NCBI GenBank assembly: GCA_026395295.1
Contig: JAPLYZ010000012.1
Span: 65,299 to 129,298 of the forward strand
DNA from: Candidatus Staskawiczbacteria bacterium
GTDB lineage: Bacteria > Patescibacteriota > Minisyncoccia > Minisyncoccales > Staskawiczbacteraceae
Direction: 5' to 3'
DNA: 64,000 nt
The notes under the pieces were generated by a model, which made no database searches, had not been told where the DNA came from, and saw nothing but the letters and a program-made list of their open reading frames with translations. Below are positions 16,856 to 32,246 of this stretch, in pieces; within the stretch, counting starts at the first letter, position 1; every line of letters starts with the position of its first letter. Position numbers and translations under genes: made by a program.

Positions 16856-17413
16856 ATGGTTGAGAAAAAAATTACTAAAAAAACAATTGAAAAAGTTGAA
16901 GAAATAAAGGAAGAGGTAAAAACTCCGACTGTTGAGGTTTCGTCAGTTTCGGCAGAAGATGTGGCAGAAGATGACATTTCAGAGGAAATTGCTAAGTCTA
17001 TTAAAGAAACATCCGGTAAAGCAGATCGTTATTTTGAGGCAATTGGCAGAAGGAAAACCGCGGTTGCAAGAGTGCGCCTTTTTACAAAAGGGGACAAAGA
17101 ATTTATTGTAAACAATCAGCCATACCAGCAATATTTTCAAACAGAAGAAGACAAAGAGTCGTCTGTTGCTTCAATGAAAAAAATGAAATGTCTGGACAAG
17201 TTTAGGGTAACAGTAAAAGTGAAAGGCGGGGGACACAGGGCTCAGGCCGAGGCTATAAGGCACGGCACAGCCAGGGTGTTGGTGGATTTTAATGCAAATT
17301 TCAGAAAGCGCTTAAGAAAGGCAGGATTTTTAACAAGAGATCCAAGAATGAGAGAAAGGAAGAAATTTGGCTTAAAGCGCGCCAGAAAATCTCCACAGTG
17401 GGCAAAGAGGTAA
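16856..17413 (+). CDS. rpsI: 30S ribosomal protein S9 (acidic N-terminal extension); the last 7 nt (end of Lys codon, Arg codon, stop) are supplied by prophage DNA
   Basis: GRRKTAVARVRL, GGGHRAQAEAIRHGTARVL, LTRDPRMRERKKFGLKRARKSPQWAKR*. The attL core lies in codons PQWAK. Confidence 0.9.
   Translation: MVEKKITKKTIEKVEEIKEEVKTPTVEVSSVSAEDVAEDDISEEIAKSIKETSGKADRYFEAIGRRKTAVARVRLFTKGDKEFIVNNQPYQQYFQTEEDKESSVASMKKMKCLDKFRVTVKVKGGGHRAQAEAIRHGTARVLVDFNANFRKRLRKAGFLTRDPRMRERKKFGLKRARKSPQWAKR
17393..17406 (+). repeat. attL core (shared with attR 60688-60701)
   Basis: CCACAGTGGGCAAA is identical at both prophage ends. Both copies are in frame as P-Q-W-A-K and are followed by R-stop with different codons (AAG AGG TAA versus AAA CGT TAA). 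Confidence 0.7.
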
Positions 17414-17448
17414 TGGGGAACGGTTAACGGCCTGTAAAACGATTTAAA

Positions 17449-17479
17449 AGTAACAGTTTGACGACTGCTACTTTTTTTT
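17449..17479 (+). terminator. Phage-borne rho-independent terminator now serving rpsI
   Basis: AGTAACAG/CTGCTACT stem (1 mismatch), 8-nt loop, then TTTTTTT. Confidence 0.6.
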
Positions 17480-17524
17480 CGTTGGAAAAAGGTCGAAAGT
17501 GGCAGAAATCACAATAAAACCATT

Positions 17525-17692
17525 ATGTCACCCGAATTAAAACAAAAATTAAACCAGCAATATTACGTGCCGTTTTTTGATTATCTTCCAAAAAAAGAAA
17601 ACGGAACGATTGATTGGATTGAAACAATCGGCGCACCAATCGCAGTCGCTGGTATCGCGTTGTTTGGGTATCTTTGGTTCCGATATTTATGA
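17525..17692 (+). CDS. Small membrane protein (55 aa)
   Basis: Read by eye: MSPELKQKLNQQYYVPFFDYLPKKENGTIDWIETIGAPIAVAGIALFGYLWFRYL*; one TM helix; stop overlaps the next start (ATGA). Confidence 0.4.
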   Translation: MSPELKQKLNQQYYVPFFDYLPKKENGTIDWIETIGAPIAVAGIALFGYLWFRYL

Positions 17693-17871
17693 GAACATCT
17701 AACGACGAATATATTTTGCCAGACGGTAAAATAATATCGCTCGGTCAAGACCAACAACCACCAAAAGAAGCAAGAATATGGAACGGATACGACTACCAAA
17801 ATCAGTACTGGGTATATCAAGGAAAAAGAGATACCCGGACGTTGACCGAGTTGAGAGCGTCAAAAATATAA
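17689..17871 (+). CDS. Hypothetical phage protein
   Basis: ATG overlapping the upstream stop; within track ORF 17674..17871. Confidence 0.4.
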   Translation: MRTSNDEYILPDGKIISLGQDQQPPKEARIWNGYDYQNQYWVYQGKRDTRTLTELRASKI

Positions 17872-17889
17872 ATTATAAATCTAATTAAA

Positions 17890-18459
17890 ATGGACACTAT
17901 AAAAAGATATTTAGCTCAATATCCGGATAGGGTAACAAAAAATGACTATCTGGAATTGGCTAAAAAGAATGAGAAAGGAGTGCCGATGTCAACAGGAGTC
18001 CACATTGTTACATTATTAAAGTGTGAAAATGCCACAAGAGATACTGAATATCGTGGCGAAGAAAAAGGAATTAACTTAATTGTTGACGAAGACGGTGTTG
18101 AAAAGAAATATTTTGTTCCGATGTTTGTAACAGATAAAAATTCTCCTAACTACGGAAAATTTCATTATTTGTTTCAAAAGTTTGAGGATATTGAAGAGGA
18201 CACAATGCTTGAAATGGAATTTGTCAGAAAAGGGGCCAGAGGATATGTAGATGTGAGAATACACGATGTTGGAAATAATATAAAAGATAACAAAGCAGAC
18301 ACGAACGATATACCAGTGATTGAAGAAACAAAAGACGGACACTACAAGGGAGAAGTAAGGGGAGTGACTCCGTCAGTGCAAGCAAGGAGAACAGAGGGAG
18401 TGAAATTTCCAAAAGAAAACTTGGAGAAAGAGATCGACGTTCGCGATATTCCGTTTTAA
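17890..18459 (+). CDS. Hypothetical phage early protein
   Basis: 189-aa ORF in the co-oriented early block. Confidence 0.55.
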   Translation: MDTIKRYLAQYPDRVTKNDYLELAKKNEKGVPMSTGVHIVTLLKCENATRDTEYRGEEKGINLIVDEDGVEKKYFVPMFVTDKNSPNYGKFHYLFQKFEDIEEDTMLEMEFVRKGARGYVDVRIHDVGNNIKDNKADTNDIPVIEETKDGHYKGEVRGVTPSVQARRTEGVKFPKENLEKEIDVRDIPF

Positions 18460-18592
18460 CAAATGTGACGGTGTACCGAAATTTAGACCTTTTCTGCATC
18501 GTTGAAGCCGGCGACAACAGGTTGTTCACACCTTAAAACGCCGGCACCAAAAATTATGATAAAAGATTTAAGAAAACCTACAACCAAAATCT

Positions 18593-19225
18593 ATGGAACA
18601 CAAATATAAGATAAAGGACGAGAGTGGAGATAAAAAATACTTTACTCAAATTCCTAATATGATTGTTAATCACTCGACTGCCTACGAGCAAAGTTTATAT
18701 CTTATAATGAAAAGATTGGCTGGAGAGGGCGGACAATGTTATGCTTCTCTTAATTTTTTGGCTTCTAAAATGGGAATACATAAAACGACCGTAACCAAAA
18801 CAATAGCCAAGCTTTTAAAAAGAAAATGGATAGAAGAGACCTCTAAAACAAAAGTCCCGGGAGGGTTCACGAGAACCTTTATAATAATAGATTTATGGAA
18901 GTTAAATATAGACAATTATGGAGGTGGTGCTGAAATGACCACTGGACAACCACTGGACGACCAGTGCATAACTCCGGGAGGTGGAGCTATAAAAAACGGA
19001 GGTGGAGCTGTGGTAGACGGAGGTGGTGCCCAAACCGATACAAGTAAGATTAAGAATAAGATTAAAGAAGAAGAGACGGCGAATTCTTCTTCTTTTAAAA
19101 GAAAACGGTATTACGGGAGACTCGAAATGCGCTTTGCACAAGGTAAGTGGTGGGTCATACCAGAGGACGGGGGAGATTGGTTAGAGTTTGATATGAGGTT
19201 TTTTAAGGACACCGTAGAAAAATAA
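18593..19225 (+). CDS. Winged-helix/HTH protein, putative replication initiator (DnaD/O-like)
   Basis: YFTQIPNMIV...LYLIMKRLAG..GQCYASLNFLASKMGIHKTTVTKTIAKLLKRKWI HTH region, then a Gly-repeat linker carrying iteron-like DNA repeats. Confidence 0.45.
   Translation: MEHKYKIKDESGDKKYFTQIPNMIVNHSTAYEQSLYLIMKRLAGEGGQCYASLNFLASKMGIHKTTVTKTIAKLLKRKWIEETSKTKVPGGFTRTFIIIDLWKLNIDNYGGGAEMTTGQPLDDQCITPGGGAIKNGGGAVVDGGGAQTDTSKIKNKIKEEETANSSSFKRKRYYGRLEMRFAQGKWWVIPEDGGDWLEFDMRFFKDTVEK
18920..19029 (+). repeat. Iteron-like 11-mers inside the initiator gene (candidate ori)
   Basis: GGAGGTGG(T/A)GC at 18920, 18977, 18998 and 19019; the last three are spaced exactly 21 bp. CCACTGGAC occurs at 18939 and 18950, followed by CCAGTG. 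Confidence 0.4.
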
Positions 19226-19227
19226 TT

Positions 19228-19662
19228 ATGTGGAACAGAAATCAAGTCGATGAAAATTTAAAGACAGGGAGGGGAATATTGGAGTCTGCTTTTTACACCT
19301 ATAAATCAATGATGATGTCTTATAGGTTTCCGAGTGTTTTTTACAAGAAGTACGTGAACGACAAAACAATACACGTTGGAATAAACACTGGCAATTATGT
19401 TTTAGCGGCCACTCCGGTGATTTTTGGGAATATAGTGTCGGTCAACAAGAAAGTGTGGAAGTGCCGTAAACCTATAATCCTTTATGTGGGAGAAGCGCAC
19501 GCCTTTTATCTGATAAAACAAAAAGAAGTTAAGGACGCAAAAGAAATTAGTTTTCCAAACTGCACACTGATAAATTTTGATATTCACGCCGGTGTTAATC
19601 TTACCAAGATTTTTCCTGAATACACCGAAGAGGAAAAAGAAAAAAAGTTAATGGGGTTTTAA
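19228..19662 (+). CDS. Hypothetical phage protein
   Basis: 144-aa ORF, 2-nt gap from the upstream gene. Confidence 0.55.
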   Translation: MWNRNQVDENLKTGRGILESAFYTYKSMMMSYRFPSVFYKKYVNDKTIHVGINTGNYVLAATPVIFGNIVSVNKKVWKCRKPIILYVGEAHAFYLIKQKEVKDAKEISFPNCTLINFDIHAGVNLTKIFPEYTEEEKEKKLMGF

Positions 19663-19666
19663 AAAT

Positions 19667-20095
19667 ATGCCACTTAAAAATTATACAACAACAGTGCCAG
19701 CAGACAGGAGCATTCAAGAGATCCAAAATTCGCTCGTGAAGAACGGGGCTGTGGGAGTGATGTATCAGTACGAAAAGGGAACCGGGAGAATATCTGCATT
19801 GGTTTTTAGACTGCCGGTTAAAGAAAGATTGGTTTCATTTTCCTTACCGGTTAATTGGCGTAATTTTCAAGAGGTTTTGAAACAACAAGAAGTTAGACGC
19901 TGGGACGATGAAGATTATTGCTACCGAGTGGCGTGGAGAGATATTCGTGATTGGGTGCTGGCTCAAATGGCTCTCTATGAAACAACGATTGTAGAATTGC
20001 CGCAGGTTTTCTTGCCGTTTGCCACAGATGATAAGGGTAAAACGGTGTACGACAAATTATTAAATAATAAATTTCTCTTGGGAGAGGGAAATTAA
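19667..20095 (+). CDS. Hypothetical phage protein
   Basis: 142-aa ORF in an operon-like array. Confidence 0.55.
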   Translation: MPLKNYTTTVPADRSIQEIQNSLVKNGAVGVMYQYEKGTGRISALVFRLPVKERLVSFSLPVNWRNFQEVLKQQEVRRWDDEDYCYRVAWRDIRDWVLAQMALYETTIVELPQVFLPFATDDKGKTVYDKLLNNKFLLGEGN

Positions 20096-20102
20096 AAATC
20101 AA

Positions 20103-20276
20103 ATGAAAGGGCCAATGTTACCAAAGTGGATGTGGGTTAAGGGAAAAAGCAAAAACTTTTACCCAAGACTTAAACAGGAGGGGATAGCTTTTGGAGTTAA
20201 TCCCTGGCTGGGACAAATGATCGATAGTCCTATGAGCCAACTGATTAGAAAATTAAAAAAAGAATTGAAAAAATAA
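20103..20276 (+). CDS. Hypothetical small phage protein (57 aa)
   Basis: Read by eye: MKGPMLPKWMWVKGKSKNFYPRLKQEG...KLKKELKK*. Confidence 0.35.
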   Translation: MKGPMLPKWMWVKGKSKNFYPRLKQEGIAFGVNPWLGQMIDSPMSQLIRKLKKELKK

Positions 20277-20280
20277 ATTT

Positions 20281-20457
20281 ATGGAATTAGATAAAGGTTC
20301 AAAAATTTTAATTCAGCATTTAAAAGATTTATTGGCAGAAGCCGAAGCCGGAGCGTTTGGTGATTTCACTAATAGTGAATACGCCGCTCCAAAAATGATG
20401 TTGGCAGAGAAGTTTAATCAATTAAGGTTGAATGTTATTAGTGGTAAATATGATTAA
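20281..20457 (+). CDS. Hypothetical small phage protein (58 aa)
   Basis: Read by eye: MELDKGSKILIQHLKDLLAEAEAGAFGDFTNSEYAAPKMMLAEKFNQLRLNVISGKYD*. Confidence 0.4.
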   Translation: MELDKGSKILIQHLKDLLAEAEAGAFGDFTNSEYAAPKMMLAEKFNQLRLNVISGKYD

Positions 20458-20460
20458 ACA

Positions 20461-20928
20461 ATGGAAAATATTATAAACGTCCCAATTTACTTCTTAAAGG
20501 ATTTGCCGAAACTCCCTTTGATGGATATTCAGGAGAGAGAGTTAAGGCTCTACGTTATGATAACTTGGCCACAGGGGTACATACTCCCTATGGAGATACC
20601 GCTGGGAGTCGCTCTGATAGCCTCCTACGACTTGGACGATGCCATTGTGAAGAGCAACACGGTAGTGCCGCAATTCAATATGTTAAAGAATATTGGGTAT
20701 AAGCCGGTTAAAGATATTTTGGGAGTTGTAGATGTGGGAGGGGCGACTGTTGTGAGACCGGAGACGACACCGCCAGAGGTGCAGGCGGAAATATCCTTTG
20801 AGCAGTTCCGCCAAAGATTGCTTTTAGCGCGGGATCAGTTCTGTCCATTAGAGGATAGGAAAACTCTGACAGAAATTATCCAGCGATTAAAATTAAAGGT
20901 CGAGGAAAAAATAGAAAATAATAATTAA
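20461..20928 (+). CDS. Hypothetical phage protein
   Basis: 155-aa ORF. Confidence 0.55.
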   Translation: MENIINVPIYFLKDLPKLPLMDIQERELRLYVMITWPQGYILPMEIPLGVALIASYDLDDAIVKSNTVVPQFNMLKNIGYKPVKDILGVVDVGGATVVRPETTPPEVQAEISFEQFRQRLLLARDQFCPLEDRKTLTEIIQRLKLKVEEKIENNN

Positions 20929-20932
20929 ATTT

Positions 20933-21286
20933 ATGGCTGAAAAATATTGTCATATTTTCGCCCACTGGTTCAACTCGTTAGGATTTGCATCACACAGGGC
21001 AAGCCATAGAAGAAAAAATAAAATGGAAAATTCAAATACAGGTTCAGTACCCGGAGGACAAACAACCCCTTTAACGTTCGGACAAAAAGCCGTAGGGATA
21101 ACATTCAATCCGGGCGGGGATCTTAATGTTGCAAAAGCAAAACAACTTTGTGCGGAGGCGATTGATTTACTTATTGCTACTCCGTTTGATGTCGGAAGCG
21201 AAGGAGCGGCAATGAAAGAAGAAGCTATTAGGCAACTTCAAACAGCTCAAATGTGGGCTGTAAAAGTTATTACGTGGAAAGAATAA
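20933..21286 (+). CDS. Hypothetical phage protein (start may be ATG 21023)
   Basis: 117-aa ORF; an internal Met (MENSNTG) is an alternative start. Confidence 0.45.
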   Translation: MAEKYCHIFAHWFNSLGFASHRASHRRKNKMENSNTGSVPGGQTTPLTFGQKAVGITFNPGGDLNVAKAKQLCAEAIDLLIATPFDVGSEGAAMKEEAIRQLQTAQMWAVKVITWKE

Positions 21287-21302
21287 AAGTCGAATTATAA
21301 AA
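21286..21302 (+). promoter_or_regulatory. Copy 1 of the phage intergenic motif AA(A/G)GTCG(A/C)ATTATAAA
   Basis: AAAGTCGAATTATAAAA directly after a stop codon, 19 nt before ATG 21321. Confidence 0.35.
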
Positions 21303-21320
21303 AGCAATAATTAAATAAAA

Positions 21321-21518
21321 ATGTCAGACTTAAATTTAAAGTGTGCTGACTGCAAAGGGGATTTCGTTTTTACAGAGGGCGAACAAAAATTCTTTACCCA
21401 AAAGGGTTTTACTCCTCCGCGAAGATGTCCGGGTTGCAGAGCAATAAATAAGCGAAAGAAACAGGAGAGAGAACAAGGGGGCAACGACAAGGGTTGGGAT
21501 AGAGGAAATAATTGGTAA
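21321..21518 (+). CDS. Zinc-ribbon protein
   Basis: CADCKGDFVFTEGEQKFFTQKGFTPPRRCPGCR: two CxxC pairs with the conserved F.F...EQ.F...GF..P.RC..CR pattern. Confidence 0.55.
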   Translation: MSDLNLKCADCKGDFVFTEGEQKFFTQKGFTPPRRCPGCRAINKRKKQEREQGGNDKGWDRGNNW

Positions 21519-21560
21519 TTAAAAGGTCGGCCAATAATATTAACCATAATATATTTTAAA

Positions 21561-21659
21561 ATGAACTTTGAAGATGATGACGATTTCGAAGACGACGATG
21601 AGGAGGACGAGTCGGATGACCCGGATGGAGATGCAGAAGATGAGGGCTCCGACGATTAA
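21561..21659 (+). CDS. Hyper-acidic 32-aa peptide
   Basis: Read by eye: MNFEDDDDFEDDDEEDESDDPDGDAEDEGSDD*; 23 of 32 residues are D or E. Confidence 0.35.
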   Translation: MNFEDDDDFEDDDEEDESDDPDGDAEDEGSDD

Positions 21660-21669
21660 CAATTAAAAA

Positions 21670-21886
21670 TGCTGGGGTGCTTAATTCCGGGCTTTCCGCA
21701 ACTTCCCTCGCCACATAAAGTAAGCAACTTCTTCCAACACAAAGAGTTGATCCGTGAATGGGAAGAAATTATCGGATTACATTCTGAAATATGTATTTAG
21801 GAGGGTATGATTCACAATTTTACCCGAAGCTATAATCGGGTTTATAGCAATCAGATGAGTTGTCCCCGGAGCTAAGCACCCCAGCA
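21670..21886. repeat. 22-nt terminal inverted repeats bracketing a 217-bp segment (MITE-like or structured RNA)
   Basis: TGCTGGGGTGCTTAATTCCGGG (21670-21691) versus CCCGGAGCTAAGCACCCCAGCA (21865-21886): 20/22 complementary; A-runs on both outer flanks. Confidence 0.4.
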
Positions 21887-21897
21887 AAAATAGTCGA

Positions 21898-22092
21898 ATG
21901 GGTTTAACTCCAAGACCAGAGTATGCTGGCAAATCAAAATATATACAGACCACAAAGATTTTAGTTGAATGCTCGAAGTGCAAGCACGAGTACTGGATTA
22001 AGCAGGACGATTTTGATGTTTCGCATATGCAAAATTGCCACTGGTGCAAAGAGTTGGCCGAAGCAACAAGAGTTATAAGCGATAACACTTAA
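21898..22092 (+). CDS. Small CxxC...CxxC protein
   Basis: ECSKCKHEYW...NCHWCKE; 64 aa. Confidence 0.45.
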   Translation: MGLTPRPEYAGKSKYIQTTKILVECSKCKHEYWIKQDDFDVSHMQNCHWCKELAEATRVISDNT

Positions 22093-22096
22093 TTTT

Positions 22097-22270
22097 ATGC
22101 CTATTTTAACTATCAAAATTATAGTGGAGGCAGACACACCGGCGAGCAAACATCTTCTTAACAATGAGAATTACGCAGTGTTTGAAACAAAGGAAGATGA
22201 CGCAACGTTCGCAATGGTGCAAAGGCGTGTAGGTTCGGGGTTAGAGGAAGATAATAAAAAAGATAAATAA
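22097..22270 (+). CDS. Hypothetical small phage protein (57 aa)
   Basis: Read by eye: MPILTIKIIVEADTPASKHLLNNENYAVFETKEDDATFAMVQRRVGSGLEEDNKKDK*. Confidence 0.35.
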   Translation: MPILTIKIIVEADTPASKHLLNNENYAVFETKEDDATFAMVQRRVGSGLEEDNKKDK

Positions 22271-22275
22271 AACTT

Positions 22276-22422
22276 ATGGCAAACAAAAAAGCATTACAAA
22301 GAGAAATGAAATTAGTTGCGAGAATGGTGGCTCTTAATATTGAAAGCATTGTGGTTCAAAGGGACGAGAAAGGAAATTACGTGGGGGCAATAATAACAAA
22401 AAAAGACGATGCCAGCAAATGA
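22276..22422 (+). CDS. Hypothetical small phage protein (48 aa)
   Basis: Read by eye: MANKKALQREMKLVARMVALNIESIVVQRDEKGNYVGAIITKKDDASK*. Confidence 0.35.
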   Translation: MANKKALQREMKLVARMVALNIESIVVQRDEKGNYVGAIITKKDDASK

Positions 22423-22543
22423 TATTATACACGCCGTTGAGGACTGCCCGGATTTAGATTTTACTGATCCGATTGTTTGCGATACGTGGGTTAAGGTCAA
22501 AAGAATAATTATTGAAAAACAATTAGAAGAAAATGAAGATTAA
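22409..22543 (+). CDS. Hypothetical small phage protein (44 aa)
   Basis: Read by eye: MPANDIIHAVEDCPDLDFTDPIVCDTWVKVKRIIIEKQLEENED*; overlaps both neighbours. Confidence 0.3.
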   Translation: MPANDIIHAVEDCPDLDFTDPIVCDTWVKVKRIIIEKQLEENED

Positions 22544-22940
22544 AATATTTTACGAACCAATTTATAACACTCATTTGTTGCTTTTGTATGAATGCAATTA
22601 TATTGAGGCAGAACATTATTTTTCAAAAAATAAAATTAGAACTGATTTGATAAAATGTTCTGGACAGACCGGAACTTATCGCGTGGAGAAGCCAGACGGC
22701 TCCAGCCAAAAAAGATATTATATTTATATTGAAAAAACTGACAAAGGTTGGATTGAGGATATATCTACGATTTTGCACGAGATTTCGCATTTGGTTTTTA
22801 TGTCTTTGTTTGATTGCGGAATAGAAATAAATCCGAAAACGGACGAAACATTTTCTTATTATTTTGAGTGGTGGTTTAAAACCTTAATAAATTCTTTGAC
22901 TCCGAAAAAGAGGGCAAAACGGAAAAAACGACGCAATTAA
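22533..22940 (+). CDS. Small HExxH zinc-metallopeptidase-like protein
   Basis: STILHEISHLVF motif; basic tail KKRAKRKKRRN; 135 aa. Confidence 0.45.
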   Translation: MKIKIFYEPIYNTHLLLLYECNYIEAEHYFSKNKIRTDLIKCSGQTGTYRVEKPDGSSQKRYYIYIEKTDKGWIEDISTILHEISHLVFMSLFDCGIEINPKTDETFSYYFEWWFKTLINSLTPKKRAKRKKRRN

Positions 22941-23029
22941 ATCGCATTACACGCACGATAATTTGTCAAGTTGAGTTATAGGTCGTCTAATTTTAGCCTA
23001 TGTAAGATATGTAAGATATTACATAAAAT

Positions 23030-23458
23030 ATGGTATTTAAACCCGGAGATAAAAGACCAAAAGGAGCAGGTATTAAGCGAGGTCAGAAGACAAAGAAAAC
23101 TCTCGAACAAGAGGCGGCTTTGGATTTGTATAAAAAAAGAATACTTGATAATTTAGTTCCCTTTATTCGTGCGCAATTTAATCAGGCAGAGGGAATGACT
23201 GTAATGTTTCAGCGGCGAAAGCAGAAAAATAAAAAGACGGGGAAATTTGAACGCACAGGTGAACTTGTTAGGGTTATGGATATAAACAGAGTTGAGCAGT
23301 TGTTAAAGAGCGATGGGCAAGGAGAGAATTATTATTACATCACAACTAAAGATCCGAATGTAAAAGCGCTTGAGAATTTGTTTAACAGGGTTTTTGGTAA
23401 GCCGAAAGAAAGTATTGAGGTAGAACACAAAGGCAGTAAGGTTATAATTCTTGATTAA
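23030..23458 (+). CDS. Putative terminase small subunit
   Basis: 142-aa basic protein immediately upstream of terminase large subunit; called by position and size only. Confidence 0.4.
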   Translation: MVFKPGDKRPKGAGIKRGQKTKKTLEQEAALDLYKKRILDNLVPFIRAQFNQAEGMTVMFQRRKQKNKKTGKFERTGELVRVMDINRVEQLLKSDGQGENYYYITTKDPNVKALENLFNRVFGKPKESIEVEHKGSKVIILD

Positions 23459-23461
23459 AAA

Positions 23462-24868
23462 ATGGAAGAATCTGAAAAAGTAAATTTCTCTGATTTTGTT
23501 AAGTGGACTCCCAAACAACGAGAGGCAGATTTGGCAACAAAGAATTACAAATATATTTTATATGGCGGAGCTATGGGAGGAGGCAAGAGTTATTGGTTGC
23601 GCTGGGAGGGAATAAAATTGTTAATGTATTATTGGGGAAAATATAAATTAAGCGGTGTGATGGTTGGTTTATTTTGCGAAGATTATCCGGCATTGAAAGA
23701 TAGGCATTTGAGCAAAGTTAAATTTGAGTTTCCAACTTGGCTTGGCACATATTCAGCGCAAGACCATAATTTTATTTTATCCTCTGATTACGGCGGAGGG
23801 ATATTGGGATTTAGAAACCTTGACGATGTTTCAAAATATCAGTCGTCAGAGTTTGCGGCCGAATTGGTTGATGAGCTTACAAAAAACGATAAAGAGACGT
23901 TTGATTTTTTAAGAACCCGATTAAGGTGGCCCGGAATTGAAGATACAAAGTTTCTTGCCGGAACCAACCCGGGAGGAATCGGACACGTGTGGGTTAAAAA
24001 TATGTGGATTGATAAAAAGTTTGACGACAACGAGCAAGAGAAAGATAAGTTTGCTTTTATACAAGCAAAGGCCGCGGATAATCCGCATATCGCACAGAGT
24101 TATTATAAATCGCTTGAGAGTTTGCCTGAGGGGCTACGCAAGGCTTTTCTTGAGGGAGATTGGGATTTATTCAAAGGGCAGTTTTTTGGTGAATGGAGAC
24201 GCAATATACACGTCTGCAAGCCCTTTCAGATACCGAGCGACTGGAAGAAATTTGTTTGCGGAGATTATGGATTTGCTAAACCTGCGGCAGTTTATTGGAA
24301 CGCAGTCAGTCCGGACGGAGTAATTTATATCTATCGAGAACTTTATTGCATAGAGCATACTTTTTCAGATTTAGCCAAAAAGATTATTGCAATGACTCCC
24401 GAATCAGAAGAACTTAAGTATTGGGTGTTTGATCCGAGCATTTGGTCAAAGAAAGGAGAATCGGAGTTATCCGGAGCTGAAATAATGCAAAGTGTTTATC
24501 GGGAGATAATGAAAAAGTCATTGATGCTTTTGCAGGGAAACAATGACAGGATTAACGGCGCGCGGGTGTTTAGGGAATACTTGAAACCATATTTGCAAGA
24601 GGAAATGATTACGGCCAAGTTGCAGGTGTTTGAGAATTGTATGGAGTTTATAAGAACCGTGCCGGCATTAGTTTATGACGCAACAAAAGTTGAGGATTGC
24701 GACACCGACGGAGAAGATCATTCATATGACAGCGAAAGATATGGTTTAATGTCGGCTCCGACTCCGGCCATTACTTCTGATAAGTTGAAACAAAAATTAT
24801 TTAACGAAAGAATGAGAAGAAATAAAGAACGCAACAAATCAAAGAATAAATTTTTTAGAATGGTATGA
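23462..24868 (+). CDS. terL: Terminase large subunit
   Basis: Walker A ILYGGAMGGGKSYW, Walker B-like AAELVDELT, C-terminal nuclease region with acidic motifs (CGDYGF, DTDGEDHSYD); 468 aa. Confidence 0.9.
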   Translation: MEESEKVNFSDFVKWTPKQREADLATKNYKYILYGGAMGGGKSYWLRWEGIKLLMYYWGKYKLSGVMVGLFCEDYPALKDRHLSKVKFEFPTWLGTYSAQDHNFILSSDYGGGILGFRNLDDVSKYQSSEFAAELVDELTKNDKETFDFLRTRLRWPGIEDTKFLAGTNPGGIGHVWVKNMWIDKKFDDNEQEKDKFAFIQAKAADNPHIAQSYYKSLESLPEGLRKAFLEGDWDLFKGQFFGEWRRNIHVCKPFQIPSDWKKFVCGDYGFAKPAAVYWNAVSPDGVIYIYRELYCIEHTFSDLAKKIIAMTPESEELKYWVFDPSIWSKKGESELSGAEIMQSVYREIMKKSLMLLQGNNDRINGARVFREYLKPYLQEEMITAKLQVFENCMEFIRTVPALVYDATKVEDCDTDGEDHSYDSERYGLMSAPTPAITSDKLKQKLFNERMRRNKERNKSKNKFFRMV

Positions 24869-25089
24869 AAAATTATAAACCAACAAAAAAAGAAACATTT
24901 ATTGTCGGAAAAATATTTGCTGATTTGAAACGCGCAAAGTCAGTTAAGTGTAAAAACAAAATAAAAGAAATTTATTGTAATTTAGATTTTGAAAAATTAA
25001 CGGAGACACAGCAAAAGGTTGTAGATAAACTTTATAATATGCTTTTAGATCAAAGATATTTAACTTACTTGCTACCATTTAAAAAATGA
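24865..25089 (+). CDS. Hypothetical phage protein
   Basis: 74-aa ORF; start overlaps the terL stop (ATGA). Confidence 0.45.
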   Translation: MKNYKPTKKETFIVGKIFADLKRAKSVKCKNKIKEIYCNLDFEKLTETQQKVVDKLYNMLLDQRYLTYLLPFKK

Positions 25090-25313
25090 TAAGCATAGAT
25101 TTTAATGACAAAGAAGCACAGCAACTTCTCGCATTGTTTGCGGCGAAGTTCTTTGAATTAGAGGGAGAAGTTTTAATTTATAAAGAAAAACAAACCGGCG
25201 TAATTAGATTTATAAAACAACCGCGACCAAAAAAAGAAGATATTATTTTGTATGACAAAAGCAGAGTAACAAAGGGAAATAAAAAAACAGCACTTGACAA
25301 GATTGTTGGATAA
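25086..25313 (+). CDS. Hypothetical phage protein
   Basis: 75-aa ORF; start overlaps the upstream stop. Confidence 0.45.
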   Translation: MISIDFNDKEAQQLLALFAAKFFELEGEVLIYKEKQTGVIRFIKQPRPKKEDIILYDKSRVTKGNKKTALDKIVG

Positions 25314-25323
25314 GAAGTAAAAT
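25294..25323 (+). promoter_or_regulatory. Near-consensus sigma70 promoter inside the 3' end of ORF 25086..25313
   Basis: TTGACA (25294-25299), 18-nt spacer, TAAAAT (25318-25323). Confidence 0.45.
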
Positions 25324-25329
25324 AAGATA

Positions 25330-25434
25330 ATTTAATAAAATTGTTTGCCTCCGCTTGGAAGAGCCACTCGGCTCTCGCCCAAAGGGGCTTCGAAAGACAC
25401 TGAAGTAATCGGTGCTTTTCGAAGCCCCTTTTTT
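25330..25434 (+). ncRNA. Candidate ~105-nt terminated transcript (sRNA, or antitermination-controlled leader of the portal/head operon)
   Basis: Lies between the promoter above and a strong intrinsic terminator; contains hairpin AGAGCC-actc-GGCTCT; no plausible ORF. Confidence 0.35.
25384..25434 (+). terminator. Strong intrinsic terminator 15 nt upstream of the portal start
   Basis: 12-bp stem GGGGCTTCGAAA/TTTCGAAGCCCC (25384-25395 / 25417-25428) followed by TTTTTT. Confidence 0.7.
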
Positions 25435-25449
25435 GTTTGTATAAAACTT

Positions 25450-27495
25450 ATGCAAAACTATAAAAAGGTAAAAAAACAAAAACCACAACAGCAACAAAAG
25501 GCTCCGGCGAAAACGCAGGAACAGATTGAGGCCGAAGAAATAAGGATAGCGGCGATGTACAAACCATCAGACACCGAAAAAGAAAAGGTGTCTTTTATTT
25601 ATAAAGAATTTGAAGAGATGATTTCTGTCCGGAATGAAAACTATACTCAATTTAATAATATGGGTTTGTTAGAGTTTATTGAAAACTCACGATTGAGAGT
25701 GCAAGGATTTGTGCCGGGCAAAGAAGAACAGGGCAAAGAGGACTGGCAGGCCAATGTTTTTAATCAAGGCACAAGAAATAAATTAAAAGCGTTTGTTGCC
25801 GCAGTTGCCAGCACGCCTCCCCAAACACCAATTCGCGCGAGAAATATCAAAGACGGAAGTTATGACGAAGCAAGGTCAGAGTATATGGAAAATCTTGTGA
25901 ACTACGCAAGGTCTCATTCCAATCCGGAAGTAGAAATCTTTTGGGAAGCGTGGCAAGGAGCAACGGAGGGAACAATTATAAAATACAATGGTTATTTAAA
26001 ATCAACACAGAAAAGAAAGTTTATAAAATCATACAACTTCAACACTGGAGAGATGACCTTTGACGAAAAGGAAGTTGTAGTCAATGACGAATGCGTTGAT
26101 GCGTTTGTTCCGTTGAGGGAATTATTTATAAAAAATATTTACATTCACGATATTCAGGCACAGCCGGCAATTGCTTGGGCAAGGAATGTTGACAGAGCAA
26201 CAGCCGAATTGGAATTTGGCAGATACCCGAATTGGAAAAATGTTCACGGCAAAAACTCTGAACGTATTTCAAACGAGATGGCGGACTTCTTCCGCGATAG
26301 AGTTGATGACGAAGAGTACGAGATTTTAAAATACTACAACAAGGCAAGGGATCAGTACAGCGTTGTGATTAACGGAGTTTTGGTTTTAGACACGCCATTG
26401 CTTTGGGGTCTTTATAAAAAGTATTATCCTTTTGCAAAATCAATCTGCGAACCGTTTAATGGCAGAGAATTCTTTTATGGCAACTCGATACCGAACGCCA
26501 ATATGGACGTTCAGGACACTATAAACAAGCTTTATAATATGTCGCTCGACAAAACCTATCGCTCGCTTTCTCCGCAAAGATTGATTGGAAATGTAAACAA
26601 AGATTTGCTGGAAATGGAGAACGAGGAAATGGGTATGGATAAAGACGTTTATGTTGCTGATGTCGCGCAAGTTAAGTGGCAGGAAGCCCCGGGCATAAAT
26701 AATTCTGAAATGGCAATGATTAAATGGGTTGGCCAGCAATTCGACTTGGGCATTGTTGATTCAACACAGCAAGGTGTTGCCGGAAGAGGCGTAACAGCGA
26801 GGGAAATTGTCATTGCAAACGAGAATGCAAAGAAAATAAAAGGAATGTTCTTTGTGTTCTTGGCTGATTTGTGGAGGCAGAAAACACAACTTACGGTTTT
26901 GAATATTTTAATGCACTATCCTGTTGCCAAGATTAAAGATGTTATCGGGGCAGAAGGAGCAAAATCAGTTCAAGAAACCTACCCGACTTATTATGTCCGC
27001 AACTCAAAGTTTCCAAACGGGCAGAGAGGCACTCTTGCAATTCAGATCGTCAAAGACAAGGCTTCTCTCCCAACCAAAAATGAATTAGACATCGAGGAAG
27101 AACTAATGAAGCTCAAAGGAATGAGTTATACAAAGGTGGCAATCACCAAAGATTATTTTGCCGACTACGAATATGAACCGGAAGTTGTAACAGACACTCT
27201 ATACCAGCAGGATTTGGCAGAAATGCAGGCCACATTCACAGAGAAGTTGAGAATAATGATGCTGGCTTTCCCTGATATTTATCAGCAGAATATAAAGGTT
27301 TTGTTCCAAGATTTCTTGAAAGCATACAAAGATAAGGAGGGTAAATACAATTTAGAACCCTTACCACAAGCACCAGTTGCCCCTACAACGCCAGTCGGCC
27401 CCGGTCAACCAGTAGGAATGAAGACAGGACAGGCAACAGCCTCACCAATCGCAAATCCTGCCCTTACTGGGCCAACAAAAGTCGGAGGAGGGTAA
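25450..27495 (+). CDS. Putative portal protein
   Basis: 681 aa. It is the first large gene after the terminase. Internal ATG 25450 chosen because track start 25345 reads through the terminator hairpin. Pro/Gly-rich C-terminal tail. Confidence 0.6.
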   Translation: MQNYKKVKKQKPQQQQKAPAKTQEQIEAEEIRIAAMYKPSDTEKEKVSFIYKEFEEMISVRNENYTQFNNMGLLEFIENSRLRVQGFVPGKEEQGKEDWQANVFNQGTRNKLKAFVAAVASTPPQTPIRARNIKDGSYDEARSEYMENLVNYARSHSNPEVEIFWEAWQGATEGTIIKYNGYLKSTQKRKFIKSYNFNTGEMTFDEKEVVVNDECVDAFVPLRELFIKNIYIHDIQAQPAIAWARNVDRATAELEFGRYPNWKNVHGKNSERISNEMADFFRDRVDDEEYEILKYYNKARDQYSVVINGVLVLDTPLLWGLYKKYYPFAKSICEPFNGREFFYGNSIPNANMDVQDTINKLYNMSLDKTYRSLSPQRLIGNVNKDLLEMENEEMGMDKDVYVADVAQVKWQEAPGINNSEMAMIKWVGQQFDLGIVDSTQQGVAGRGVTAREIVIANENAKKIKGMFFVFLADLWRQKTQLTVLNILMHYPVAKIKDVIGAEGAKSVQETYPTYYVRNSKFPNGQRGTLAIQIVKDKASLPTKNELDIEEELMKLKGMSYTKVAITKDYFADYEYEPEVVTDTLYQQDLAEMQATFTEKLRIMMLAFPDIYQQNIKVLFQDFLKAYKDKEGKYNLEPLPQAPVAPTTPVGPGQPVGMKTGQATASPIANPALTGPTKVGGG

Positions 27496-27513
27496 ATATA
27501 ATTAAAACAATTT

Positions 27514-27888
27514 ATGAAGCTATTTATAATTCGCGTTCTTTTGCGGCTTCTCCACATTGAGTTAAGTCCGATAGACGCAAAGAGGGTAAAGATGTTTTTA
27601 TGGACAGCTTACCCCCAACAAGGCTTTCAGGATTATATCAAAGAGCGTGATATGTCGATCCTGCAAGAAATGGGGAATGGGCTTACCCGTGAAGATTATC
27701 TTATCAAATTAGGGCAGAGGATAGAGATTGGAATGTTAAAATCTCAATCCAAAGTGTCCTTTGAAAGAATTGAACGGGAGAGACAGGACAAAATTGAGGC
27801 AATGAAAATTCAGGCAGAGAAGAGAGCAAAGGAAGCGAAGAAAGAACAGCTCAAAAAAGGTGAAGACACTGAAAACAAAACAGATTAA
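27514..27888 (+). CDS. Hypothetical head-module protein
   Basis: 124-aa ORF with a charged coiled-coil-like C-terminus. Confidence 0.45.
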   Translation: MKLFIIRVLLRLLHIELSPIDAKRVKMFLWTAYPQQGFQDYIKERDMSILQEMGNGLTREDYLIKLGQRIEIGMLKSQSKVSFERIERERQDKIEAMKIQAEKRAKEAKKEQLKKGEDTENKTD

Positions 27889-28336
27889 CTTCGCAGTCGC
27901 TTGGTCTTTCTTAAAATCAATTCCGCCCAAAGAGTATGACTCAATGATGGATATTGAAAGGTCAGTGGAGATTGTAAACAAACTGGCTGAAGCAATACCG
28001 GAATTCGTTGAGCATAAGAAAGCCGGAGAAGATTTTAACAAAAAGATTATAAGAGACGAGATTAAGGACGAAACAGAGGGAGACAAGGTTATTAAGACTG
28101 CCGGACAACAGATTCAAGAATGGCACGAAGCATACGATAAAAAGACAGACCAGCTTGGGGATAAACAGGGAAACGAGGTTGCAGAGGTAGAGTTTGATGA
28201 TGCGGTATTCAACACATTCTTCCAATTCTGCAACAACAAAAAATGGGGAGCAAAGACTTGGTTTAATGCGGTGCCGGATTATCTCGGGTTCTTACAGGAC
28301 TTGAACAAGGCAAACCAACAGCCAAAAGACAGATAG
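27860..28336 (+). CDS. Phage protein, paralogue A of 32717..33142
   Basis: The GTG start is supported by the paralogue alignment (MKTLKTKQINFAVAW versus MKSLTSKTINFFICW). Both share VEF.(D/N)..FNTFFQ..W.(K)(T/D)WF. Confidence 0.6.
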   Translation: MKTLKTKQINFAVAWSFLKSIPPKEYDSMMDIERSVEIVNKLAEAIPEFVEHKKAGEDFNKKIIRDEIKDETEGDKVIKTAGQQIQEWHEAYDKKTDQLGDKQGNEVAEVEFDDAVFNTFFQFCNNKKWGAKTWFNAVPDYLGFLQDLNKANQQPKDR

Positions 28337-28368
28337 AAGTTCATTACAATTAAATGGAAAGTTGCTCG

Positions 28369-28434
28369 GGAGCTTATACCTCTGCATAGATATTACAGAA
28401 TCTTGCATAGATATAAGCTCCTTAAGAGGAGCTT
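28369..28434 (+). promoter_or_regulatory. Attenuator-like alternative hairpins plus 21-bp-spaced direct repeats upstream of the scaffold-like gene
   Basis: GGAGCTTATA (28369-28378) pairs with TATAAGCTCC (28412-28421). The overlapping AAGCTCCT (28415-28422) pairs with AGGAGCTT (28427-28434) through loop TAAG. TGCATAGATAT occurs at 28383 and 28404. Confidence 0.4.
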
Positions 28435-28480
28435 TTCTCATAAGAAGGTGAGCGGCCTTTTAAAAAACGCTTTAAAACCT

Positions 28481-29113
28481 ATGAGTGAAGAAAAAAAAGA
28501 CTTAAAACCGGGTGGAGAACAACCACCTGCCGGCTCTGGTCAAGACGATAAAGATAAAAAATCAACCGAGCAGTCGAAAGACGACACGGTACAAATATCC
28601 AAGTCCGAACTGGAACAGATCAAGAAAGATAGAGATAACTATCGCGAGGGAGTAATAGCTTCTAAGCGTAAGGGTCGAACTATCCCTGGGTCTGAACCCC
28701 AAGTCAAAAAGGACAAACCTGCCAACGACGGCGGAGATGCCGGTGACGATGACGACTCGCAAGAGTTTGTCACCAAAAAAGACTTTACCAAAAATATTGA
28801 GAAGTCTGCAATCAAGGAAGCGCAAAAGGATTCTGAAGTTGATGAGAACTGGGACTCTATAATGGAGTTTTACCAACCTCGTCACGGAAAGGATACTGTT
28901 GACGATATTCTTGCTGATATACAGACTGCCAAAAAAGTTTGGAAAGCCGAAAATCCGACGGCACCCAAAACCGATAAGGGAGAGGGTGATTCCAAAGTAG
29001 CCGCAGATTTAGCCGCTGACAAGGGTATAGGAGAGGGCAAGGATAAAAAACCAACTCCGGAAAAGAAATCTATTCTTAGAAATAAGAAAGTTCCTATGAA
29101 GGATTGGTATTAG
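28481..29113 (+). CDS. Putative scaffolding protein
   Basis: Highly charged, low-complexity 210-aa protein (K/D/E-rich) between portal and capsid genes; ATG 28481 inside track ORF 28403..29113. Confidence 0.45.
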   Translation: MSEEKKDLKPGGEQPPAGSGQDDKDKKSTEQSKDDTVQISKSELEQIKKDRDNYREGVIASKRKGRTIPGSEPQVKKDKPANDGGDAGDDDDSQEFVTKKDFTKNIEKSAIKEAQKDSEVDENWDSIMEFYQPRHGKDTVDDILADIQTAKKVWKAENPTAPKTDKGEGDSKVAADLAADKGIGEGKDKKPTPEKKSILRNKKVPMKDWY

Positions 29114-29131
29114 TAATTAAACAAAATACAA

Positions 29132-29536
29132 ATGTTCAAACCGATACAATTCGATTCAGGTAAACTTTTGTCGTGTCCAGTTGGATCAACCCAAACAATC
29201 GCCAAGGGTGATGCTTTGATTTGGTCTTCTGGTTTATTGGTTGTAGCAACCAACACTTCGTTAGATATTTTCGCTATCGCTATGCAAGATTCTGCCTCTC
29301 AAGCTTCAGGAACACTTATTTTAGTGTTGCCAGTTGCCGGAGTTAGATTTGAAGCAGACACCGATGACGTAGTTTCTACCGTTGATAGAGGATGTTACGC
29401 CGATTTAGCAACACTCGCAACCGTTAATCCGGATGCAACAACCTATAAGGTTTTCTTAATTGACGAGATTGTTGGCACAGTAGAAGTTACCAAAATTGTT
29501 AGAGGAACATTTTGTAGGTTAAAAGCCGCCACATAA
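29132..29536 (+). CDS. Small head protein (possible decoration/cement protein)
   Basis: 134-aa beta-rich protein directly upstream of the capsid gene; positional inference. Confidence 0.35.
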   Translation: MFKPIQFDSGKLLSCPVGSTQTIAKGDALIWSSGLLVVATNTSLDIFAIAMQDSASQASGTLILVLPVAGVRFEADTDDVVSTVDRGCYADLATLATVNPDATTYKVFLIDEIVGTVEVTKIVRGTFCRLKAAT

Positions 29537-29538
29537 CT

Positions 29539-30507
29539 ATGATTACAGCAAAAGATTTTCCATCTTTAACCGATGACTTGCAGTCCATTTTTAATGAGAC
29601 AGCAAAATCAAAGGTTGCCAATATGCAGTCAAGTAAGATTTTTAATGTGTTTGACACAGATCGTTTAACATACGACCATCTTATTTTGCACGGCGTATCG
29701 GGTATTCAACGTGTTGCGGACGGCGCAGACCTACCGAGGATAAATAGTGAAGAGGGAGACACAGTAACTTGGACACAAGATTACTATGGCGCAATCTTTG
29801 GCGTAACCAAAAAAATGAGGAAATTTGATTTGCACGATCAAATCTCACAACTTCCAAAAACTTTGGTTGAAGACGCTTTCGACAAGATTGAGCAGAGTTT
29901 AGCAGATGTTCTGTTAAATGGTTTCTCCGCCAGCAACTATGCTGATGTCTATGGTGCCTCAGTTGCGGCAGTCGGCCCGGATGGGCTTGCACTGTTCAGC
30001 ACTGTCCACTCCAACAACATCAACTCCAACACGTTCTCTAACATAATTACTTCGAATCCTGCTTTATCAAGGCAGGCCGTTATAACCGCAAGAACACAGG
30101 GTAGAACACACAAAGACCCGAATGGTATTAAAAGACCAATCAATCTCGACACTCTCATTGTGCCAGTAGCACTTGAAGATTTAGCCGAGAGGATACTGAA
30201 CTCCGACTTAATGCCGGGTTCCTCTTACAACGATATAAATTCGTTGAAAGGAAAAGTAACCACATTGATTGTTTGGGAGTGTTTAGACACTCGTACCGAC
30301 GGGACTGACACATCAGCATATTGGTTTATGGCAGATTCAAGCAAAGTAGGCGAGAGCTTGCAATGTTTGTTTGCAGAAAGACCAACGCTCGATGCACCCG
30401 ATGAAATTTATAGTAATAAAAACTGGGATTATTCCTGTGATTTTTATTACGCAATCGGGAGAGGTTACCCAGCGTACATCTTCGGTTCCAACGCTTCAGG
30501 TAGTTAA
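29539..30507 (+). CDS. Putative major capsid protein
   Basis: 322 aa; follows the scaffold and small head protein; followed by a long hairpin, as is typical for a highly expressed capsid gene. Confidence 0.55.
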   Translation: MITAKDFPSLTDDLQSIFNETAKSKVANMQSSKIFNVFDTDRLTYDHLILHGVSGIQRVADGADLPRINSEEGDTVTWTQDYYGAIFGVTKKMRKFDLHDQISQLPKTLVEDAFDKIEQSLADVLLNGFSASNYADVYGASVAAVGPDGLALFSTVHSNNINSNTFSNIITSNPALSRQAVITARTQGRTHKDPNGIKRPINLDTLIVPVALEDLAERILNSDLMPGSSYNDINSLKGKVTTLIVWECLDTRTDGTDTSAYWFMADSSKVGESLQCLFAERPTLDAPDEIYSNKNWDYSCDFYYAIGRGYPAYIFGSNASGS

Positions 30508-30514
30508 TAACTAA

Positions 30515-30565
30515 CTTGTGATTAGTCGTCTGCCGGATTTATGTCCGGCAACGATTAACCACAAG
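30515..30565 (+). terminator. Long imperfect hairpin after the capsid gene
   Basis: CTTGTGATTAGTCGTCTGCCGGA ... TCCGGCAACGATTAACCACAAG, ~20 bp paired with 3 mismatches or bulges; no U-tract. Confidence 0.4.
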
Positions 30566-30566
30566 T

Positions 30567-30584
30567 AAAGGTCGCATTATAAAC
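30567..30584 (+). promoter_or_regulatory. Copy 2 of the phage intergenic motif
   Basis: AAAGGTCGCATTATAAAC, 18 nt before ATG 30602. Confidence 0.35.
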
Positions 30585-30601
30585 CAATTAAAAATAAAAT
30601 T

Positions 30602-30838: not shown

Positions 30839-30991
30839 ACCAGTGAGGTGGCCAACCTCGTTAAAAACCAAGTTTTATAAAATAACATTTCAAATCGGCG
30901 ATACCAAGAAAGGACATCAACGGCGCAAGTTGATTCTTGCACAACCTGATATATGTTCATTCCGTTAAACCGAGATTGAAATAAAAACAAA

Positions 30992-31963: not shown

Positions 31964-32038
31964 TCCTTGTGAGATTACAGTTCTCTCCGGCTCTCTGTAA
32001 AAGAGCCGGATAAGCAAAATAAATTTAACAACAAATCT

Positions 32039-32245: not shown

Positions 32246-32246
32246 A

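Follow-up and report, generated by a model that had tools for sequence, protein, structure and literature searches.

A window of 64 kb (the whole stretch of DNA that was analysed) from the genome of a Candidatus Staskawiczbacteria bacterium, which belongs to the Patescibacteria or Candidate Phyla Radiation (CPR), was found to contain a phage-like interval lying directly at the 3' end of rpsI, the gene encoding ribosomal protein S9. We consider it very probable that this interval is a prophage that integrated site-specifically into the last codons of rpsI, supplying a synonymous Lys-Arg-stop end (K-R-stop) together with a terminator and displacing the native gene end to the right junction (attR). 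Such an integration had been proposed in an earlier, sequence-only reading of the same DNA, and it is supported here by the phage genes of the interval, by the rpsI loci of related bacteria and by homologues of the integrase. The coordinates of all features are collected in Table 1.

The 14-bp sequence CCACAGTGGGCAAA is present as an exact copy at 17393-17406, inside rpsI, and at 60688-60701, both on the plus strand. No other copy exists in the window, even at one mismatch, and none was obtained in 100 shuffles, so the two core copies named by the sequence-only reading are the only ones. Around the cores the similarity extends over 22 bp with three mismatches (17393-17414 against 60688-60709). 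At the left junction (attL) rpsI ends with CCA CAG TGG GCA AAG AGG TAA, and the copy at attR reads, in the same frame, CCA CAG TGG GCA AAA CGT TAA; as had been described, both encode PQWAKR followed by the stop and differ in the codons used for K and R. The translated RpsI ends with SPQWAKR and covers the S9 profile to its last position, which indicates a full-length hybrid product. The gene is a chimera, of host origin up to the core, the last base (G) of codon 184 together with codon 185 and the stop coming from the phage. The 14-mer alone proves nothing, as the earlier reading had cautioned, because direct repeats of this size abound in the window (53 maximal repeats of at least 14 nt, against 12.7 in shuffles), and the case rests on the context in which the repeat is found.

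The first part of this context is provided by related bacteria. When metagenome contigs were scanned with the att pattern, 16 loci were found, of which 14 are rpsI 3' ends; GTDB species genomes scanned with RpsI gave 80 loci. In most of these relatives (80 GTDB genomes and 14 metagenome contigs) an intrinsic terminator comes immediately after rpsI. The closest uninterrupted locus, L013, reads ...CCACAGTGGGCAAA ACGTTAAT cttaaaaaaa CCGCCTTTGGGCGG TTTTTT (its flank is also given as ...ACGTTAAT...CCGCCTTTGGGCGGTTTTTT), which corresponds to the right flank of the window joined straight to rpsI, and its terminator stem CCGCCTTTGGGCGG is identical to that of the window. Moreover, the AIRS-like host gene found beyond attR is located directly after rpsI, with a terminator between them, in L038, L051 and L045, and about 1-4 kb past rpsI in L030, L031 and L047. 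The uninterrupted loci that the sequence-only reading had suggested looking for do therefore exist (e.g. L013, L038, L051, L045), in other species. It had also reasoned that the left boundary would lie elsewhere if prophage-free relatives carried AAG AGG TAA followed by the phage arm; this arm (17407-17530) was absent from the rpsI loci of all 96 relatives and was found only in contigs of the same lysogen. The comparison of rpsI 3' ends across relatives gave mostly rpsI followed by a terminator, and AAG AGG TAA T itself turned out to be a natural ending (CCACAGTGGGCAAAGAGGTAA closes rpsI in L010, L011, L015, L030 and L094).

The second part is the gene content of the interval. Packaging and virion genes of the kind expected for a prophage of the Caudoviricetes were identified (TerL, portal, capsid and connector, the portal by a weak match only), the interval is bounded by direct repeats and an integrase gene lies adjacent to one of them. 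TerL shows 32-34% identity to the TerL of the podoviruses HMO-2011 and CRP. Judged by these genes, the interval appears to be a complete-looking, podovirus-like tailed-phage genome. It includes a single open reading frame (ORF) for a polyvalent protein of 3903 amino acids (aa), and polyvalent proteins are thought to be delivered together with the phage DNA to act against host defences. As a separate observation, a phage protein of 117 aa (20933-21286) matched the Acb2/Tad1 hairpin domain only below the threshold (E 1.3e-4; 22.5 bits, the cutoff being 27), and the same faint match was seen in L001; this protein is a possible sponge acting against the cyclic-oligonucleotide-based antiphage signalling system (CBASS) or Thoeris.

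The third part is the integrase, a Xer-like tyrosine recombinase. A longer ORF with a GTG start at 59281 is an over-extension, the homologue P0001 having 303 aa and being 100% identical. The protein aligns over its full length to XerD (1a0p) and to a XerC-like protein (4a8e), with the residues R, HxxR, H and Y in place (integrase and XerD motifs TGcRigE-TGLRVSE, HkafRtgFAT-HVLRHAFAT, rHrs-GHSD and ksYlky-QIYTHV). No extra N-terminal arm-binding domain is present, as from residue 15 onwards the integrase aligns to residues 15-290 of XerD, and its core-binding part gave only a weak SAM-like match (PF02899, E 0.0018). There are 34 homologues of this integrase at E <= 1e-10, and three of them with long contigs (P0002, P0003 and P0018) were examined. 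All three have an rpsI-end-like sequence, CA(A/G)TGGGC(A/G)AA(A/G)AG(A/G)TAA, downstream of the integrase stop codon. In L111, the locus of P0002, the arm CCCAAAGTGGTA(A/C)TTTATACCA is kept right up to the core, which then follows the codon usage of that host, CCTCAATGGGCAAA. This conservation and the presence of rpsI-end fragments in three out of three homologues are what a family of rpsI-targeting integrases predicts. None of the integrases in 50,697 phage records is more than 30% identical to this one, 22 Streptococcus phage records among them match it weakly, and the search of IMG/VR for relatives of the integrase and of TerL gave nothing useful (only a 23% integrase match and a 41% TerL match).

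Both junctions were also observed outside the window. Several runs gave independent assemblies that contain the attL junction (L001, L002, L026, L027), and in other samples contigs run across the attR core into the native gene end (L005, L007, L008). Sequencing runs with the lysogen include SRR20698651, SRR20698638/39, ERR15302175-213 and ERR11260133. These junctions are not k-mer chimeras, because a 14-bp repeat cannot cause such a chimera. One may still ask if the repeat is a coincidence, the real bounds lying elsewhere or the phage DNA having arrived by a route that is not site-specific, such as homologous recombination or assembly chimerism. The surplus of repeats mentioned above (~13 expected) and the fact that no empty site was recovered are compatible with this idea, but the repeat lies exactly at the stop region of rpsI with the frame restored, the core starts 331 bp beyond the integrase stop (60357), the three integrase homologues have the same arrangement, the synteny of the relatives puts the insertion exactly here and several independent assemblies contain the same junctions. 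Restoration of the frame and a distance of about 330 bp had been the arguments of the sequence-only reading as well, and we find a chance repeat highly improbable.

Integration is best explained by a Campbell-type recombination between attP and attB carried out by the Xer-like integrase (59446-60357). The phage site would be ...CCCAAAGTGGTACTTTATACCA-CCACAGTGGGCAAA-GAGGTAATGGGG... and the bacterial site, corresponding to the last seven codons of rpsI, ...AAATCT-CCACAGTGGGCAAA-ACGTTAATAATT... (reconstructed junctions: attB GCGCGCCAGAAAATCTCCACAGTGGGCAAAACGTTAATAATTACAAGAGCC and attP AAGTGGTACTTTATACCACCACAGTGGGCAAAGAGGTAATGGGGAACGGTTAACGG), with strand exchange taking place inside the 14-bp identity. 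In this model attP would hold a 22-bp imitation of the rpsI terminus, CCACAGTGGGCAAAGAGGTAAT, and it is because of this imitation that the integrated gene would still end in K-R-stop (AAG AGG TAA). Since the ending CCACAGTGGGCAAAGAGGTAAT occurs naturally in the five relatives L010, L011, L015, L030 and L094, the comparison suggests that the phage copy was derived from a real rpsI end or selected to resemble one. The phage hairpin and T-run located 35 nt further on would plausibly end the rplM-rpsI transcripts and protect the early phage genes against read-through; with the phage in circular form, this terminator would plausibly also stop transcripts coming from int, from the promoter at 60393-60420 and from the 50-aa ORF crossing attP. 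The native A-CGT-TAA end would have been moved with its own terminator to attR. We infer from the sequence that this integrase is the catalyst and where the crossover point lies, and the function of the terminator and the present ability of the prophage to excise are likewise putative.

The two hairpins of this model were both recognized. The phage-arm hairpin folds in its context at -19.7 kcal/mol (z -3.1), and the scan calls a terminator on the minus strand, which makes it potentially bidirectional. The native terminator, CCGCC-TTTG-GGCGG followed by a T run (T5), folds at -18.3 kcal/mol (z -4.9) at 60715-60745. A replacement terminator brought by the phage arm, with the native one beyond attR, was part of the sequence-only reading and agrees with the position of these hairpins. 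On the other side of the phage genome, the block CCCAAAGTGGTACTTTATACCA adjoining the core is nearly identical in L111, where the arm farther to the left has diverged, and it is the best candidate for phage-side recognition by the integrase. A sigma-70-like promoter and a basic 50-aa ORF between int and the att site are also kept in L111; this ORF is, by inference only, a candidate directionality factor.

The sequence-only reading had also regarded two further repeats shared by the arms as plausible integrase-binding sites. The repeats are present as described (CAAAGAGGTAAT at 17403 and 60596; GAACGGTTAA at 17418, with its reverse complement TTAACCGTTC at 60639-60648), but a role in binding is unconvincing and we regard it as unproven. 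They are statistically weak (shuffled versions of the reconstructed attP contain a repeat of at least 12 nt in ~5% of cases and one of at least 10 nt in about a third), neither motif is kept in the P arm of L111 and the integrase has no arm-binding domain.

A feature absent from the sequence-only reading is a third copy of the rpsI end, situated beyond attR. A perfect 50-bp direct repeat, TGGGCAAAACGTTAATAATTACAAGAGCCGCCTTTGGGCGGTTTTTGGTT, comprising the rpsI end and the terminator, encloses a mini-island without integrase that is arranged in tandem with the prophage. Encoded in this mini-island are an HTH_17 protein, a Fic/Doc protein and a membrane-like product of 64 aa. The locus is best described as a tandem array of rpsI, prophage, mini-island and host DNA, in which the mini-island represents a second insertion at the same site. 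Its arms are unlike those of the phage, and no homologue of the mini-island was found at the rpsI loci of the relatives. The third copy starts at TGGGCAAA and does not include CCACAG, in agreement with use of the complete, gene-proximal site by the phage.

It can be proposed instead that the third copy at 61731 is the true right end of the prophage, with the HTH_17/Fic module being phage cargo and the repeat at 60688 an internal phage sequence. The sequence TGGGCAAA at 61731 also matches attL (17399-17406), HTH_17 is an excisionase-type fold and toxin-like cargo is common at prophage ends. However, the shared core would then be of only 8 bp, and in L111 the conservation of the arm stops at the rpsI-like core and other genes follow, with no HTH or Fic. 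In addition, the distance of 331 bp from int to the core matches the 333 bp of L111, and part of the 50-bp repeat is the host-type terminator that L013 has as well, as predicted by a second insertion at the same site. We therefore consider it improbable that the prophage extends to the third copy, and keep its right end at 60688-60701.

Some points do weigh against the integration of the prophage at rpsI as proposed here. The replacement rpsI end was seen once only and no attL of a related phage was obtained; homologues of the 189-aa left-end protein, used in the search for a second attL, were located inside unrelated phage genomes and not beside rpsI. The closest uninterrupted locus, L013, belongs to a different species, with 75% DNA identity over rplM-rpsI, and no obvious dyad-symmetric core-type binding sites were seen around the 14-mer. 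Look-ups in Logan, ENA, JGI and IMG/VR found no same-species attB or phage attP, a result that is uninformative as the contigs break at the 50-bp repeat. Finally, the prophage may be defective or fixed, its activity being unproven.

Exact-protein look-ups were made for RpsI, Fic and the integrase, for the end ORFs of 55 aa and 50 aa and for the AIRS-like gene; nothing but lysogen junctions or short contigs bounded by the 50-bp repeat came up, and scans of IMG/VR with the att pattern and with both phage arms found neither arm. About 23 contigs per phage end, from many sequencing runs, were read, and all those inspected correspond to the integrated junction, with no attP. Many Logan contigs have an end or a start at 60687-60723. 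A reading of this as polymorphism of attR, attB and attP, and so as a sign of excision, was rejected, given that the contigs reach exactly k-1 = 30 nt into the 50-bp repeat (ends of L005 and L008 at 60723; starts of L003 at 60714 and of L123 at 61751). Short-read contigs break here because this repeat exceeds k = 31, which is an artefact of the de Bruijn graph.

These results bear on the possibility that the prophage is a defective, fixed remnant, its att sites being historical scars and its integration/excision system dead, a view that concerns present activity and not the origin of the structure. All inspected contigs being integrated and the lack of a recognisable excisionase inside the element are in its favour. 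On the other hand, long ORFs are intact across 43 kb, including that of 3903 aa, the catalytic residues of the integrase are kept, both cores are perfect and the missing attP and attB contigs are uninformative because of the breaks at the 50-bp repeat. We regard a dead system as rather unlikely.

Table 1. Features of the rpsI locus and its prophage in the 64-kb window, and of related loci
Feature	Sequence	Position	Strand	Remarks
rpsI (ribosomal protein S9, 185 aa)	Window	16856..17413	+	Pfam PF00380, E 1.3e-39, profile positions 1-121 of 121
attL core CCACAGTGGGCAAA	Window	17393..17406	+	Exact repeat of 60688-60701
Phage-derived GAGGTAAT	Window	17407..17414	+	Completes AAG AGG TAA (synonymous K-R-stop)
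Prophage	Window	17407..60701		43,295 bp with one core copy included; genes almost all on + strand
Phage-arm intrinsic-terminator-like hairpin	Window	17446..17479	+	A-tract, 12-bp stem, T8
HTH_36 protein	Window	18593-19225		
TerL (large terminase)	Window	23462-24868		PHROG 979, E 3e-21; tblastn 1e-56 to HMO-2011 and CRP phages
Portal-like protein	Window	25345-27495		Weak match, E 6.5e-4
Major capsid protein	Window	29539-30507		PF25209, E 4e-16
SU10-type adaptor	Window	33145-34563		E 3e-10
PG-binding and LysM (lysis) proteins	Window	38575-40754 and 56925-58031
Polyvalent protein, 3903 aa, single ORF	Window	40758-52469		Eco57I-type methylase, SNF2/ResIII helicase, ADP-ribosyltransferase (ART-PolyVal/PARP), LPD38
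Xer-like tyrosine integrase, 303 aa	Window	59446..60357	+	PF00589, E 4.4e-26, 92 bits against cutoff 27.1; PHROG 1, E 4e-33
Sigma-70-like promoter	Window	60393-60420	+	11/12 with TG
50-aa basic ORF between int and att site	Window	60430-60582	+
Conserved phage arm block CCCAAAGTGGTACTTTATACCA	Window	60664..60687	+	Adjoins core; GTGGTA/TACCAC inverted repeats
attR core	Window	60688..60701	+	Exact repeat of attL core
Left copy of 50-bp repeat	Window	60694..60743	+
Displaced native rpsI end (A CGT TAA) and native terminator	Window	60702..60745	+
Integrase-less mini-island	Window	60744..61730	+	987 bp; in tandem with prophage
HTH_17 protein of mini-island	Window	60800-61054		Pfam
Fic/Doc protein of mini-island	Window	61057-61485		Pfam
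64-aa membrane-like ORF of mini-island	Window	61513-61707
Right copy of 50-bp repeat (third rpsI terminus)	Window	61731..61780	+	Starts at TGGGCAAA, without CCACAG
AIRS-domain host gene	Window	62262..63170	+	tblastn: downstream of rpsI in relatives
Integrase homologue, 83% identity	P0002	rpsI-end fragment 333 bp past stop		Phage-like neighbours (L111)
Integrase homologue, 69% identity	P0003	Fragment 252 bp past stop		Adjoins methylase, Alw26I-type restriction enzyme, AAA_13 ATPase
Integrase homologue, 51% identity	P0018	Fragment 535 bp past stop
rpsI-end-bounded island	L032	6460-10132
rpsI-end-bounded island	L037	6538-9320
rpsI-end-bounded island	L080	6556-11233
rpsI-end-bounded island	L081	6514-8697
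rpsI-end-bounded island	L105	6376-6843
Mini-element	L065	6562-6680
Mini-element	L063	6575-6700 and ~2787
Mini-element	L079	571-700
Mini-element	L031	6563-6700
Mini-element	L080	11250-11400
Mini-element	L073	~4280
Mini-element	L092	~6492
Mini-element	L024	~245	-
Mini-element	L017, L057, L071, L078

Insertions at the end of rpsI are not exclusive to this genome. In the GTDB relatives L032, L037, L080, L081 and L105 a second copy of the rpsI end was found 0.4-4.7 kb downstream of the first. The annotated islands of L032, L037, L080 and L081 contain neither an integrase-sized ORF nor a homologue of the window integrase, and they carry Tsp45I restriction-modification genes, N4/N6 and D12 methylases, Fic, AbiU2, NYN and IrrE-like proteins; the 0.4-kb island of L105 has only an 85-aa ORF. 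A left-arm motif, GACCCGTCAGAA..GATTGTCAA, follows the rpsI stop codon in about ten species, and a right-arm motif, TGTGGTGRGAAAGCRGAGCA, is kept across species. The left-arm motif also occurs after attR of the P0003 island, and tandem occupancy is therefore likely there too. Taken together, these sequences indicate that the rpsI end is a hot spot in this bacterial group. Around P0018 (L117 / L118) we observed genes for ThsA/ThsB (Thoeris), a SET-domain protein and AAA_14 beyond the rpsI-like fragment, and genes for cytidylate kinase and GTP cyclohydrolase II upstream.

Another observation made in the relatives is a non-coding element of ~110-200 nt (~130 nt) found after rpsI in at least 11 of them and absent from the window (mini-element in Table 1). 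It is composed of the blocks GGGGTCGGGG-hairpin-CGTGNAGGAAA ... AGAAACCGTGGGTTTCT-AGGAGCGA..GCGAC, also seen as GGAGCGA..GCGAC, and forms two hairpins with compensatory changes in 9 of 18 pairs. Its left bound is an inverted copy of the rpsI terminus of the respective genome, covarying with codon usage, and its right bound is a degenerate direct copy with a terminator. Further copies follow a tRNA gene (L024, where a 19-nt direct repeat is present) and lie in an intergenic position (L063). No Rfam family matched in the window or for this element in the relatives. Possibilities are that it is a miniature non-autonomous integrative element or a folded single-stranded DNA att site.

We are tempted to suggest, as a tentative and on balance doubtful idea, that the rpsI terminus is a docking site throughout this clade (Staskawiczbacteria and neighbouring Patescibacteria), where short Xer-like integrases of a dedicated family, borne by phages and defence islands, would support a hierarchy of non-autonomous passengers. 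These passengers may comprise the integrase-less restriction-modification, Fic and Abi islands between rpsI-end copies and the previously undescribed element of ~110-200 nt, which mimics the 3' end of its target once in inverted and once in direct orientation. By analogy with CTX-phi and XerCD, they might be inserted as folded single strands, or else be moved in trans.

The sequence-only reading had called the 3' end of a ribosomal protein gene an uncommon att site. In the case of rpsI such a site is not new, its 3' end being a documented att site and hot spot in Streptococcus for integrative and conjugative elements (ICEs), a prophage integrase of group B Streptococcus (GBS) and elements resembling phage-inducible chromosomal islands (PICI-like) (PMC4701971, PMC7487436). 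As with the Streptococcus elements (ICESt3-type ICEs, GBSInt5, PICI-like), the same gene end is used by a tyrosine integrase that is site-specific, several types of element share the hot spot in tandem or nested occupancy and the essential gene is affected as little as possible. Unlike them, the host belongs to the Patescibacteria and not to the Bacillota, and the cargo consists of a podovirus-like phage with defence or toxin modules, whereas that of the streptococcal ICEs consists of conjugation modules. The specificity for rpsI probably arose independently of Streptococcus, because of the low identity of the integrase to those in the phage records.

The strategy itself is well known. In phage 21 and e14 (E. 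coli icd) and in P4, P22 and HP1 (tRNA and tmRNA genes) attP copies the 3' end of the target, which is regenerated upon integration, and the displaced native end stays at the other junction. In phage 21 the exchanged part of icd amounts to about 50 codons and is altered, whereas here only 7 nt (two codons and the stop) are replaced in a fully synonymous way. In contrast to the lambda-type Int, the integrase is short and Xer-like and has no arm-binding domain. Cis-mobilisable elements (CIMEs), which are att-flanked and integrase-less, and accretion arrays have been described for the Streptococcus ICEs. The 1-kb HTH/Fic module resembles CIMEs in being integrase-less, in having att-containing direct repeats and in its tandem position beside an integrase-bearing element; the 2-5 kb integrase-less islands of the relatives (restriction-modification, Fic, Abi) between rpsI-end copies are similar to CIMEs too. 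For the mini-island no sign of mobilisation was found, and its arms are unlike the phage arms. The integration described here is thus of an ordinary kind, at a gene 3' end with restoration and with a target already known in Streptococcus, and it is well supported; its host belongs to a phylum that has been little studied.

Other features were noticed in the window. About 3 kb at 6900-9900, between an RNase H-like gene and alaS, have 49-53% GC in a genome of ~38% GC. Neither of the two ORFs in this stretch (6918-8537 and 8861-9907) matched Pfam, and Rfam had no hit in it; foreign DNA and an unrecognised RNA are both possible explanations. Upstream, in the host part, an OLD-family nuclease-like protein (1883-3208, AAA_15/AAA_21 and OLD TOPRIM) and a NOV_C-domain protein (3660-4412) are encoded, both candidate defence genes. 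At the right edge, a transposase ORF with an rve (DDE) domain (63167-63970, minus strand) meets or overlaps the AIRS-like gene at its 3' end and represents another mobile element near the hot spot.

In 2019 a prophage of Patescibacteria/CPR was still called "among the first" (PMC6509639). Well-delimited CPR prophages with defined att sites are scarce, and the present one offers both junctions, an integrase family and a target that can be searched for. The rpsI terminus PQW[AS]KR-stop accompanied by a second copy provides a simple marker for prophages and defence islands in reduced genomes, and it helps to explain breaks in metagenome-assembled genomes. The general significance is moderate, as a known strategy is repeated in which the end of a conserved essential gene is targeted and rebuilt. 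If the rpsI terminus were a docking site for the whole clade, the end of a ribosomal protein gene would be the hub of a network of phages and satellite-like elements in very small genomes.

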